From: Nitrospinaceae bacterium
GTDB taxonomy: Bacteria > Nitrospinota > Nitrospinia > Nitrospinales > Nitrospinaceae
DNA: 64,000 bases
NCBI GenBank assembly: GCA_965237905.1
Contig: OZ250172.1
Span: forward strand, 2,080,001-2,144,000
Reading direction: 5' to 3'
Part shown: positions 4,201-42,879 of the stretch, piece after piece
Numbering within the stretch: the stretch's first letter is position 1
Layout of the letters: the number at the start of each line of letters is the position of its first letter
Program-made: the position numbers and the translations under genes
Notes under the pieces: generated by a model
What the model saw: only the letters and a program-made list of their open reading frames with translations
The model's database searches: none
What the model was told of the DNA's origin: nothing

Positions 4201-5427
4201 TTGGAAGGAGAAAATCCGATGTCGCATTCTAGGTTTCTTGGAACACTATTCGCGGTCCTGGCGCTCCTGGGTTTCATGGGGAGTCAAACAGCCCTGGCCG
4301 CGTATCCCACTGCGTCGGAATTTTCCATGAATAAGCAGACCCGCGGGCTTGATGGGTCTTTTCAATTAGCGGTAATGGGGGGTAGCGCGATTCCTCTGGA
4401 TATGTCTCCGGAGAAATTCCCCGAAAAGGTACAACTTGAAAAGCCTGCGGTCGAAAAACCGAAAGCAACCCCCCCTAACCCTAAGAAGGCCTCTAAACCA
4501 AAAGAGAAAAAAGTAAAAAAGGCTAAAGTCAAAAAAGCTCCGGCAAAAAAACCGGTAGAAGAAGAGGGCTTCCTCACCAAAACCTTCAAACAACTGATAG
4601 GGAGCGATGACGCCAAGAAGGACGCCGCCTCCAAGTCCCTACTGCAAAAAACCTCTGGGAAAAAGCCTGAGACTGCGAAGAACGATGAGGGTCTGCTCAC
4701 CAAAACCTTCAAACAACTGATAGGGGACGATGACGACAAGAAGAAAGCCGCCCCTAAGTCCCAACCGCAAAAAACGGCTGCGAAAAAGTCTGAGCCTGAG
4801 AAGAAAGAAGAGGGGTTTCTCACCAAAACTCTGAAAACGCTGGTGGGTGACGATAAGGATAAGAAGAAAGCCGCCCCTAAGTCCCAACCGCAAAAAACGG
4901 CTGCGAAAAAGTCTGAGCCTGAGAAGAAAGAAGAGGGGTTTCTCACCAAAACTCTGAAAACGCTGGTGGGTGACGATAAGGATAAGAAGAAAGAACAGAC
5001 GACCAAAAAAAAGTCCCTGAGTTCTATCAATACTGCTCCGACCGGAAGCACGATCCAAAAGAAAGGGGAGGAGCCATCCAAGACTGCCAAATCGGAAACC
5101 AAAAAAACCCTCAAAGACTCCTTTGAAAAGCTGATCGGGGTGGGGGCCGTTAGTGATGATGGCGGCGATTCTAAATCCGCCAAGACAGACAAACCGGCTG
5201 GAAAAATAAAAACCGCCAAGAAACAGACCAAGGCGAAAAATACGGTTAAGAAAACATCCGCTCCCGCCAAACCCAGAAAACTCACGGCAAAGAAATACGT
5301 AGAAGAAGAGGAAGAGCAGGAAGGACGAGTGAAGCAAAACTACGCGGGTGCTAAAAAAGGTAAAAATGTCCTCAAGGAATCCTTTAAAAACCTGGTTACC
5401 GACAAGAAAAAAGCAGTGCAAGAATAA
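4201..5427 (+). CDS. Secreted Lys-rich low-complexity repeat protein (true start probably ATG 4219)
   Basis: Signal peptide ending ..TALAA; four 41-aa repeats each containing (E/D)EG(F/L)LTKT(F/L)KxL(I/V)G. Confidence 0.75.
   Translation: MEGENPMSHSRFLGTLFAVLALLGFMGSQTALAAYPTASEFSMNKQTRGLDGSFQLAVMGGSAIPLDMSPEKFPEKVQLEKPAVEKPKATPPNPKKASKPKEKKVKKAKVKKAPAKKPVEEEGFLTKTFKQLIGSDDAKKDAASKSLLQKTSGKKPETAKNDEGLLTKTFKQLIGDDDDKKKAAPKSQPQKTAAKKSEPEKKEEGFLTKTLKTLVGDDKDKKKAAPKSQPQKTAAKKSEPEKKEEGFLTKTLKTLVGDDKDKKKEQTTKKKSLSSINTAPTGSTIQKKGEEPSKTAKSETKKTLKDSFEKLIGVGAVSDDGGDSKSAKTDKPAGKIKTAKKQTKAKNTVKKTSAPAKPRKLTAKKYVEEEEEQEGRVKQNYAGAKKGKNVLKESFKNLVTDKKKAVQE
4561..4993 (+). repeat. Intragenic 123-bp tandem repeat, about 3.5 units
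   Basis: Units start at 4561, 4684, 4807 and 4930; 4738-4860 is identical to 4861-4983. Confidence 0.92.
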
Positions 5428-40200: not shown

Positions 40201-41403
40201 TTGAATCCGGGCCACATCAAAATCAAAGTATCCAAGAGTCTTCAGAACAAAATCCGCAAAGGGTTTCCCTGGGTCTACTACTATCAGTTGAACAACCGGA
40301 AAATTTCCGGGAAGGCCGGTGATTTGGGAGTGGTTTACGATTCCGGCAACCGCTTTCTGGCGGTCGGATTGTTCGATCCCTTTTCAGACATTCGTTTGAG
40401 AATTCTGCAAACCCGAAATCCCCGAGAGATCGACGAAACCTTTTTTCGGGAACGGTTGCAACAGGCCATCGAATTGCGGAGTCCTATGAATTCACAGAAA
40501 ACCACTGCGTACCGGATAGTCAATGGCGAAAGCGATGGATTTCCCGGAATGGTGGTGGACCGTTACACCGACACCCTGGTGGTCAAAGTCTATACCTCCG
40601 CCTGGTTTCCTTATCTGAAGATGCTGGTGGGTCTCCTGGAGGAAATGACAGGAGTGGGGCGGATCCTGTTACAATTGAGCCGTCATGTACAACGCGTCAG
40701 CGAAAACGGTTACCAGAACAACCAGGTGTTGTTGGGTCCCGATCTGGAGGGGCCGGTGCGGTTCCGGGAAAACGGTTTGTCATTTGAAGCGGATTTGTTG
40801 CACGGTCAAAAAACGGGGTTCTTCCTTGATCAGAGAGAAAATCGGCAGAAGGTACGCGAGTGGGCGGAAGGGCGGTCGGTGTTGAATGTGTTCAGCTATA
40901 CCGGAGCTTTTTCCGTTTACGCGTTAGCGGGAGGCGCGCGGTCCGTTTTGGAAATCGACATCAATGCCCAGGCTCAAGCGGCGGCGTTGAAAAATTGGGA
41001 ACTGAATTTCGGTTCCGATGGAAATCAAAAGGATCGGTTGCGCCAAGTCAAAGGGGATGCGTTTGAGCAATTGGCTTCGTTGAACCGGCAGGGAGAGCAG
41101 TTTGATCTGGTGATTCTGGATCCGCCGGCTTTTGCCAGTCGCAAACAAAACAAGCCAAATGCCCTGCAGGCGTATCTGCGGCTTGCCAAAGCCGGGACGC
41201 AGTGTACCCGGGAAGGCGGTCTCCTATTGGCGGCTTCCTGCTCTTCACAGGTGCGGGCGGACGAATTTTACCGGGCGGTGGATCTGGGAATCCGGGCGAC
41301 TGGGAGGTCCTATCAAATAATACTGAAAACAGGACATCCTCTGGACCATCCGGTGACCTTCAAAGAGGGGGCCTACCTGAAAGCCATTTATTGTCAATTT
41401 TAG
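40201..41403 (+). CDS. RlmI-like class I SAM-dependent rRNA methyltransferase
   Basis: PUA-like N-terminus, GESDGFPG..VDRY, GQKTGFFLDQRENR, LNVFSYTGAFS, ILDPPAFA. Confidence 0.88.
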   Translation: MNPGHIKIKVSKSLQNKIRKGFPWVYYYQLNNRKISGKAGDLGVVYDSGNRFLAVGLFDPFSDIRLRILQTRNPREIDETFFRERLQQAIELRSPMNSQKTTAYRIVNGESDGFPGMVVDRYTDTLVVKVYTSAWFPYLKMLVGLLEEMTGVGRILLQLSRHVQRVSENGYQNNQVLLGPDLEGPVRFRENGLSFEADLLHGQKTGFFLDQRENRQKVREWAEGRSVLNVFSYTGAFSVYALAGGARSVLEIDINAQAQAAALKNWELNFGSDGNQKDRLRQVKGDAFEQLASLNRQGEQFDLVILDPPAFASRKQNKPNALQAYLRLAKAGTQCTREGGLLLAASCSSQVRADEFYRAVDLGIRATGRSYQIILKTGHPLDHPVTFKEGAYLKAIYCQF

Positions 41404-41568
41404 GGGTTTGGGGTACTTGCTAGTCGAGAAGGGGTTTTGAGAAGGGTATTCTGGGTTTCTTCTGGGAAGAGGGTATTGTGGGCGCTGAAACCAGTACCAT
41501 TAAATCCCAATGTTACTACTGAATATAGTGAACAAAAGTTCGAACCGAGAAAAATTCCGCTAATTAAT

Positions 41569-41739
41569 CTACGCTGATTTTTTCTTGGCTTTCCTTCTAC
41601 GTTTTGGTGCTTTTTTCTTTGCTGCTTTCCTTTTAGCTTTACGTTTTGGTGCTTTTTTCTTGGTTGCTTTTTTTGCTGCTTTACGTTTTGGTGCTTTTCT
41701 TTTTGCTTTACGTTTTGGTGCTTTCTTCTTGGTTGCCAT
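41569..41739 (-). CDS. 56-aa histone-H1/protamine-like basic protein (below the ORF-track cutoff)
   Basis: Manual translation MATKKKAPKRKAKRKAPKRKAAKKATKKKAPKRKAKRKAAKKKAPKRRRKAKKKSA*; AAGGAG RBS 6 nt upstream. Confidence 0.85.
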   Translation of the reverse strand: MATKKKAPKRKAKRKAPKRKAAKKATKKKAPKRKAKRKAAKKKAPKRRRKAKKKSA

Positions 41740-41798
41740 CAAGAACTCCTTTCGTTGAAAATATTTGGTAAAGTTTCAGCGCCCAAATATTTAAAGTT

Positions 41799-41826
41799 AT
41801 TTTATTCTATACACCACTAATGTCAA
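41799..41826 (-). promoter_or_regulatory. Near-consensus sigma70 promoter of the histone-like gene
   Basis: TTGACA (41826-41821)-N16-TAAAAT (41804-41799) on the minus strand. Confidence 0.7.
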
Positions 41827-42024: not shown

Positions 42025-42074
42025 TTTTTTTTCATTTTTTTTCATTTTTTTTTCATTTTTTTTTCATTTTTTTT
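42025..42074. repeat. Five phased T-tracts (T8-CA-T8-CA-T9-CA-T9-CA-T8)
   Basis: Read directly; repeat period 10-11 bp. Confidence 0.9.
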
Positions 42075-42084
42075 GAAATATTTT

Positions 42085-42879
42085 ATGAAATTTCCTCTTA
42101 AAACCCATTCGATTGACGGTTTTTCATATTTCCCCCGTCTCGTTCATGCCTTCAGTCCGAGAAGTTTCGAGAGGGAGAAAGGGGTCCGTGAGGAATTATT
42201 GCTGGGTCGAAAGACTGATCCAAGATCCTCTCCACAGCATCGTCAGTGGTTACTTGAAAATTTAAACATCGACTCAAAAGAACTTTTTTTTGTGAAGCAG
42301 GTTCATGGCGATCGGGTTTTTGTTTTGGATGATCCTCAAAAGTCAGCCGATCAAGTGGAGCAGGAAGAGGCAGATGGCTTGATCACTCACCTGACTGATA
42401 AGCCGATAGCGGTGCTGACCGCCGATTGCGTTCCAGTCATTCTGTATGACCCTGAAAAGCATGTTACCGGGGTGATCCATGCCGGACGGAAGGGCACCCA
42501 AATGAGCATTGTTTCAAAAACTATATCAATGTTATCCAAGATTTACGGGTCCCGCCCCGAAGATGTGGTGATGGCTCTGGGGCCGGCGATTGGGGGCTGC
42601 TGTTACGAGGTGGAGGATTCCTGTATCGTACCGTTCCGGGAAAATTATCGGGGATGGGAAGACTTTGTGACCTCTAATTCTCAAAGCCGTTTCATGTTGG
42701 ATCTCCTGAAAGCCAACGCAATGGATGGTGTGGGGGCGGGAATCCTAAAAGAAAATATCCATCGATCGGGTGAGTGCACCGCCTGCAACAACGACCGATG
42801 GTTTTCTTACCGTAAGGAAGGGACGACTGGCAGGATCGTCAGTCTGGCGATGCTCCGTGAGGAACCCGCCCAGGTTTGA
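42085..42879 (+). CDS. pgeF: Peptidoglycan editing factor / purine nucleoside phosphorylase, YfiH-PgeF family
   Basis: QVHG, ADGLIT, LTADCVP, IHAG, GPAIGGCCYEV, CTAC...FSYR. Confidence 0.9.
   Translation: MKFPLKTHSIDGFSYFPRLVHAFSPRSFEREKGVREELLLGRKTDPRSSPQHRQWLLENLNIDSKELFFVKQVHGDRVFVLDDPQKSADQVEQEEADGLITHLTDKPIAVLTADCVPVILYDPEKHVTGVIHAGRKGTQMSIVSKTISMLSKIYGSRPEDVVMALGPAIGGCCYEVEDSCIVPFRENYRGWEDFVTSNSQSRFMLDLLKANAMDGVGAGILKENIHRSGECTACNNDRWFSYRKEGTTGRIVSLAMLREEPAQV

Follow-up and report, generated by a model that had tools for sequence, protein, structure and literature searches.

We found that the short mRNA of a histone-like gene in the Nitrospinales carries two complementary arms, one in its leader and one behind its stop codon, and that the predicted long-range helix between them is, as judged from its covariation, selected as RNA. 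A second locus, unlinked to the first, appears to encode a small RNA complementary to the start of the same gene. We hold it to be probable that a stable, end-clamped mRNA is silenced by this dedicated antisense RNA, and the helix likely protects the ends of the message, by analogy with hbs and fst. The locus lies in the 64,000-nt stretch of a Nitrospinaceae genome (G000) that was analysed, referred to here as the window, and its features are listed in Table 1.

Table 1. Features of the histone-like locus and of the small-RNA gene (window positions unless stated otherwise)
Feature	Position	Strand	Basis or remark
Histone-like ORF, 56 aa, Lys/Ala/Arg-rich	41569..41739	-	ORF call
Sigma-70-type promoter match, TTGACA-16-TAAAAT	41799..41826	-	11/12 consensus positions
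Leader hairpin, 10 bp, 14-nt loop	41759..41792	-	Arms 41759-41768 and 41783-41792
5' arm of long-range helix	41766..41785	-	13-nt core 41773-41785 and lineage-specific extension 41766-41770
3' arm of long-range helix	41479..41499	-	Core 41479-41491 and extension 41495-41499
Antisense target site	41724..41754	-	SD 41746-41752, AUG 41737-41739, codons 2-5
C-rich tail behind 3' arm	41404..41478	-	Without intrinsic terminator; candidate Rho loading stretch
Convergent neighbour, PUA and SAM methyltransferase	40201..41403	+	Domain search; context only
Divergent neighbour, PF02578 family	42088..42879	+	Domain search; context only
Small-RNA gene, ~130 nt	G000:C1:272968-273098	-	Outside the window; L031 about 4969-5099

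The encoded protein is histone-H1-like, with 26 K, 8 R, 14 A and no acidic residue, and hydrophilic throughout (GRAVY −2.1; best 15-residue window −1.7). It matched no Pfam or NCBIfam family; a longer homolog matched PF07382 (HC2) below the cut-off of that profile, and homologs ranged from 32 to 116 aa. Of the 21 genomes of the family, 19 carry the locus. A word of 16 nt surrounding the start codon occurs in G000 and in 92 of the 101 further genomes of the order, mostly as two copies, and in none of 18 genomes from other orders of the class; the reversed 16-mer, used as a control, gave no matches. A protein query found no match in five outgroup genomes, in a search run without a positive control, and the PF07382 profile matched in the control G077 and in none of four outgroups. 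When the sequence collection was scanned (55 of 64 parts covered), 113 of the 118 loci recovered were titled Nitrospina, Nitrospinaceae, Nitrospinales, Nitrospinota or similar. Four of the remaining five bear the same motifs, and one is an unrelated Burkholderiaceae gene. This last gene (L249:313-624) has a Lys/Ala-rich N-terminus fused to what we take to be a SWIB-type domain, and shares the start sequence of the histone-like gene, but its genome lacks the second (antisense) site and the record was rejected.

The loci compared below were drawn from 61 of the 93 positive genomes. The gene was held by 58 of them, and in 5 of these 58 loci the contig ends before the 3' arm, so that 53 loci extend far enough. 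The repeat-rich ORF is frameshifted in L012 (G006) and L160 (G100) and very short in L063 (G028); leader, helix and small RNA are intact in all three genomes, and the ORF defects may be assembly errors in repeats. Extra copies of the 16-nt start word with one mismatch were seen at G032:C4:54782, G032:C12:3327, G033:C49:28543, G035:C59:1407 and G036:C19:52284; such copies in genus f3g9 are possible lineage-specific further targets.

Gene order around the locus is well conserved. All 53 loci have a promoter-like match ahead of the 5' arm, and from the match in the window an mRNA start near 41792 is plausible. On the upstream side the PF02578 neighbour, presumably PgeF/YfiH-like, is adjacent in 58 of 58 loci; four 10-11-nt T-rich direct repeats lie ahead of it at 42025-42084. 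On the downstream side the methyltransferase, which we take to be RlmI-like, is adjacent in 47 of 58 loci and missing from five f3g9 loci. Four of these five reach the 3' arm and all four retain it, indicating that the helix, which persists beside a different downstream neighbour, is not part of the methyltransferase gene. The 3' arm begins 77 nt beyond the stop codon, close to the ~80 nt given by an earlier, sequence-only reading of the window. A promoter and terminator scan found no terminator-like site behind it. Over the 53 loci, the 100 nt that follow the arm hold 1595 C versus 764 G, and rho is encoded in G000; the C-rich tail is thus a possible Rho loading stretch.

The sequence-only reading had described a perfect 10-bp hairpin at the 5' end of the message, an exact 13-bp inverted repeat joining leader and downstream flank, and a TACCA/TGGTA extension of that match by 5 nt. 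All three proved accurate, hairpin arms and repeat each being 100% complementary. It had also suggested folding the minus strand of 41440-41792 with RNAfold, and the long-range helix appeared in both the MFE and the centroid structure (z −2.7; 2 of 100 shuffles equally good). The genome contains 56 exact inverted repeats of at least 13 bp whose arms lie 100-700 nt apart, roughly one in every 64 kb, and the 13-bp repeat by itself is not beyond chance. It is raised above chance because it is conserved and covaries in relatives.

Compensatory changes in homologous loci, another check proposed in that reading, were indeed found. The 3' arm was present in 53 of the 53 loci that reach it, the rest of the 3' UTR diverging, and pairing between the two arms was kept in all 53 of these Nitrospinales loci, with nine core columns paired in every one. 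Paired double changes occurred in five columns and in at least five lineages, counted by genus label rather than on a tree. They comprise G-C to A-U in G043, G045, G047 and G049; C-G to U-A in G053, G072 and G075, and in a different column in G089; A-U to U-A in G030 and G031; and C-G to A-U in G033. On the mRNA strand, columns 0-11 hold 18 G-U cells and no A-C cell. Since the 3' arms had been located with a degenerate motif and the best-pairing match retained, 36 of the 53 loci were aligned with plain MAFFT and counted again. In this alignment 96.8% of the cells were paired, a level reached in 0 of 500 shuffles, and slid registers gave 33-45%.

The pairing extends beyond the core. With the core removed, leaders still paired better with their own trailers than with foreign ones (−11.0 vs −7.3 kcal/mol in 20 genera, each represented by one genome; reached in 0 of 50,000 permutations), although the genera are related and permutation p-values therefore overstate independence. 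Lineage-specific extensions bring the helix to a total of 14-37 bp, with an uninterrupted stretch of ~11-14 bp in most genera. Four loci (L106, L109, L116 and L121; f4g13, g15 and g17) carry a purine-rich insertion in the leader mirrored by a pyrimidine-rich stretch in the 3' UTR, and the clamp is 34-37 bp in the three genomes of these genera that were measured. These patterns argue that the helix is selected as RNA, although the core itself is much more invariant than pairing by itself requires.

RNA sequencing runs were available to us as assembled contigs only, covering at most 0.20 of the query words, and because such contigs cannot show ends, strand or level we treat them as weak hints. 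Three of the four RNA runs examined closely match a relative's small-RNA locus. In two runs, contigs joined to letters that we take to be sequencing adapters begin inside the mRNA 5' arm, and a further run has one contig that stops at the base of the 3' arm. Contigs of X1 and X3 run on past that arm, so the 3' end is not fixed there. At the small-RNA locus, adapter-joined contigs from two study codes share one starting point within the 5' arm; coverage in X8 was scant and X5 gave one flat contig, uninformative either way, and we draw nothing from a gap over the small-RNA promoter in X1. As for decay enzymes, G000 encodes RNase Y, two RNase E/G proteins and RNase III, and no RNase J was found over the cut-off.

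These observations bear on the idea that the arm motif, common to the closing helices of both RNAs, is cut by an enzyme such as RNase III and times maturation or decay instead of protecting the message. The total duplex length and the presence of RNase III would suit such a processing stem, and three of the four adapter-joined contig starts (one of them in the mRNA, the other two in the small RNA) can be read, weakly, as lying after an invariant CU. However, the fourth start is elsewhere, one contig ends behind an intact 3' arm, and the uninterrupted part of the helix is short in most genera. In addition, cDNA ends often stall in stable stems, which counts against reading the contig starts as cuts. 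We therefore regard processing as rather unlikely, and favour a protective role for the helix.

We then compared the folds of complete and 3'-truncated mRNAs in the 49 sequences free of assembly gaps (4 of the 53 were dropped). The helix had a probability above 0.9 in 48 of 49 full mRNAs. The leader hairpin exceeded 0.5 in 43 of 49 truncated mRNAs versus 0 of 49 full ones, and was weak or absent in 6 of the 49 genomes; its stem sequence varies by lineage with pairing retained. The suggestion that the 3' UTR could invade the leader hairpin thus agrees with prediction, the two folds being mutually exclusive and both kept across the order. SD and AUG lie outside both folds, and their accessibility was about the same in the two forms (median 0.47 vs 0.48). 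The tail showed no conserved anti-SD: p against shuffles was below 0.05 in 5 of 53 loci (median p 0.33), with tail-SD pseudoknots assessed as isolated duplexes only.

These results weigh on a further proposal of the sequence-only reading, that the pairing is a long-range switch of the kind found in hok and aapA toxin mRNAs. The full-length mRNA would then be inert, 3' trimming would activate it, and the small RNA would act as the antitoxin. The architecture of transient 5' hairpin, long-range pairing and antisense RNA fits, and the metastable hairpin of hok itself leaves the SD unmasked, as described in excerpts of PMC6733600. A CU-rich tail could also pair with the SD as a pseudoknot invisible to the folds used (14 of 53 tails reach −8 kcal/mol), and the Chlamydia analogue HctA suppresses growth of E. 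coli, according to excerpts of PMC4355289. Against this, the start region is no less accessible in the full-length form, tail-SD pairing is no better than in shuffles, and the small RNA is predicted to bind both mRNA forms equally. Furthermore, the protein has no hydrophobic segment, and the two loci are unlinked, each being syntenic across the order. We conclude that such a switch is unlikely. The broader expectation, that a potentially toxic polycation is held in check, survives in part: the gene does appear to be under restraint at the RNA level, likely through the unlinked antisense RNA and not through a switch in cis.

This antisense RNA was recognized as the second copy of the 16-mer, 1.85 Mb from the histone-like gene in G000 and 51-87 kb from it in G036 and G032. 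This locus comes with a promoter-like sequence of its own and with both a closing stem and a U tail; a simple promoter and terminator scan left the site unscored, and the case for a gene here thus rests on conservation. The second site was found in 59 of the 61 genomes. In one it is cut by a contig end, and in the other (G034, 65% complete) the small RNA was not found and the site is not a small RNA. That site (L099) is a second gene start with the same 16-mer and no small-RNA features. The resulting set comprised 58 sequences from 57 genomes. Two copies are present in G015 (L034, L051) and in G046 (L333, L334), reflecting either duplication or a mixed assembly. Across 53 sequences the closing stem was 98.9% paired, with double changes in 7 of its 12 pairs. 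With a covariance model, 84 of the order's 102 genomes gave strong matches (E <1e-8), and none of 18 genomes from outside it did; a weak match in G026 (E 0.005) was discarded when inspection found the arms absent. The neighbours of the small-RNA locus are fixed in 53 of 58 and 55 of 58 cases and differ from those of the mRNA gene.

Complementarity to the histone-like start is extensive. In G000 the two RNAs are predicted to form a 9+21-bp duplex with one mismatch (−50.4 kcal/mol), which is the best among 21,732 candidate starts, the next reaching −38.4. In 55 RNA pairs, 1296 of the 1320 cells at mRNA positions −12 to +12 were paired; G-U accounts for 107 cells and A-C for none, and the few changes within the otherwise invariant duplex core all yield G-U, one of them opposite the U of the AUG. 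Codons 2-4 of the ORF are frozen as GCA (58/58), ACC (55/58) and AAG (58/58); later in the ORF the same codons make up 44%, 27% and 35%, though the amino acids are the same. Own pairs of small RNA and mRNA were stronger than foreign ones on average (p 0.0003), individually in only 12 of 19 genera. The small-RNA loop that faces the start codon was unpaired in 17 of 17 genera, and predicted net binding was −17 to −26 kcal/mol in these 17 genera, the same with or without the clamp. Full-length cofolding had hinted that clamp and small RNA exclude each other, but this arose because only nested folds are allowed there, and computed accessibility did not differ. No match to the Hfq profiles PF17209 or PF01423 was found in G000 (96% complete, one genome). 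Complementarity over the SD suggests repression, and taken together with coverage of the start and the parallel with IhtA and hctA, the small RNA likely represses translation of the histone-like protein.

The first 17 nt of an RpoS/RpoD-like sigma-factor gene on the minus strand (G000:C1:2466584-2467483; L280:2082-2984) are also complementary to the small RNA. This complement is confined to G000 among the 50 of 84 orthologous loci that were examined, where the next runs reach 11 nt, and a conserved second target was therefore rejected. The gene could be a species-specific side target.

Immediately after the anti-SD the small RNA has its 3' arm, which is able to pair with the 5' arm of the mRNA. 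A bound small RNA might thus displace the mRNA 3' arm, so that the clamp opens and decay follows. Cofolding with truncated mRNA did give this swapped pairing in 9 of 17 genera, the full-length cofold being uninformative since the true complex is a pseudoknot for the cofolding program. However, there was no sign of co-adaptation (own −14.0 vs foreign −14.3 kcal/mol, p 0.9), and the G-C to A-U change in g14 is not mirrored in the small RNA. A strand swap thus seems quite improbable to us.

Finally, the sequence-only reading had raised paired protein-binding sites or the ends of an invertible segment, and near-invariant inverted sites of 9-13 bp do flank the ORF and double changes would likewise keep two DNA sites identical, but we judge such a feature of the present-day DNA very improbable given G-U without A-C cells on the mRNA strand, interrupted and lineage-specific extensions, an orientation to the promoter shared by all 53 loci, so that the segment was not seen inverted, and no strand-switch joints in the four RNA runs.

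The evidence above fits a model in which a clamped message is kept silent by its antisense RNA. As seen in the sequence, promoter match, leader hairpin, ORF and 3' arm stand in a fixed order throughout the Nitrospinales. The hairpin is predicted to form first and to display the core in its loop, which the newly made 3' arm would then invade; the resulting helix would close the mRNA and leave the openness of SD and AUG about unchanged. By analogy with hbs and fst RNA I, pairing of the 5' end would limit the entry of endonucleases, and 3' exonucleases would halt at the helix, a substitute for the missing terminator. The second syntenic locus, again with promoter match, closing stem and U tail in the sequence, would supply an RNA that pairs with mRNA positions −12 to +12. 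Its UUGC loop would seed at the start codon and the duplex would spread over the SD without Hfq, so that ribosome loading is blocked and a pool of stable mRNA stays silent until the small RNA drops.

The similarity of the two RNAs also bears on their origin. In 48 of 58 small RNAs, at least 7 of 10 nt of the 5' arm agree with the mRNA 5' arm (2.3% in shuffles), and the distance from TTGAC to the arm is 41-44 nt in 49 of 53 mRNAs and 41-47 nt in 57 of 58 small RNAs. In addition, reading the clamped gene on its reverse strand and leaving out most of the ORF gives the order of elements in the small RNA: arm, anti-codons, anti-AUG, anti-SD, arm. Because the helix arms are inverted repeats in the DNA, a duplicate of the gene inverted between its arms would keep promoter and arms and give the observed order in one step. 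The small RNA may thus descend from its own target gene, as an inverted copy that has shrunk. We find this origin quite possible while stopping short of calling it probable, since a shared recognition motif would explain the arms equally well. If true, a regulator acting in trans, folded from the outset, arose from an mRNA end clamp at the root of the Nitrospinales, and one helix-recognising factor may still handle the two RNAs. It would also offer a concrete route from a target gene to a trans-acting small RNA.

Rfam searches gave chance matches only for both RNAs. In the open-access literature, outside supplements (where a motif table could hold these RNAs), we found no regulatory RNA for Nitrospinales; open-access texts likewise held nothing on this system under H1-like proteins with small RNAs or under small RNAs arising by inverted duplication. 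In the sea, the Nitrospinales rank among the major nitrite oxidisers. The whole order keeps these two core genes, mostly in single copy, which points to a tightly controlled, strongly basic protein, possibly one that compacts the nucleoid in dormancy or starvation. The system is small (a 320-nt mRNA and a 130-nt RNA) and could be tested in E. coli.

Several known systems share part of this design, and our comparisons draw on excerpts of the papers cited. Type I toxins are typically small hydrophobic peptides, and the antitoxin gene typically overlaps or adjoins that of the toxin. As in hok/Sok and aapA/IsoA, a transient 5' hairpin is replaced by 5'-3' pairing and there is an antisense RNA in the 60-200-nt range; unlike in those systems, there is no conserved anti-SD and no predicted inert primary transcript, the loci are unlinked and the protein is hydrophilic. 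The excerpted parts of PMC6733600 and PMC8594479 name sequestration of the SD among the main hallmarks of type I toxin mRNAs. Here the SD is not predicted to be sequestered by an anti-SD in cis, which places the gene outside the hok/aapA type I class as those excerpts define it. A further system is RNA I (fst) of Enterococcus par(pAD1), where, in the excerpts of PMC7472228, an mRNA silenced by antisense RNA is stabilised by an upstream helix that hides its 5' end. An intramolecular 5'-end helix, predicted here, on an mRNA with a matching antisense RNA is common to both. By contrast, those excerpts place the fst SD in sequestration in cis, its product is a peptide toxin and both RNAs come from one plasmid locus.

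The antisense arm of the system most resembles IhtA of Chlamydia, a trans-encoded, Hfq-independent RNA whose loop covers the hctA AUG; ~7 nt are needed and the SD is unused, and the RNA folds into three stem-loops with a terminator hairpin (PMC4355289, in excerpt). In both cases a trans-encoded RNA presents an exposed loop complementary to a histone-like start, here with frozen first codons. Unlike IhtA, the Nitrospinales RNA pairs over ~25 nt including the SD and is closed by a 5'-3' stem, and the excerpts of PMC4355289 mention no 5'-3' clamp on hctA. We rejected membership of the IhtA family, compared by fold and Rfam: there was no relevant Rfam match at E up to 5, the fold differs and the protein has no Pfam (Hc1) family.

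The clamp in turn resembles that of B. subtilis hbs. This gene encodes the nucleoid protein HBsu. A 14-bp pairing between the UTRs of its short and highly expressed mRNA restricts cleavage by RNase Y and leaves the SD unmasked, according to the excerpted text of PMC5737220. The likeness extends to a ~14-bp UTR-UTR pairing outside the SD in a short mRNA, and RNase Y is encoded here too. As far as those excerpts describe hbs, the Nitrospinales gene differs in encoding an H1-like Lys/Ala repeat protein; in having its 5' arm within ~10 nt of the predicted 5' end, where it competes with a conserved hairpin; and in lacking an intrinsic terminator, in a genome with no RNase J over the cut-off, and having a dedicated antisense RNA. 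Collectively, these comparisons suggest that the locus joins two mechanisms known separately, end pairing of the hbs type and antisense control of the IhtA type.
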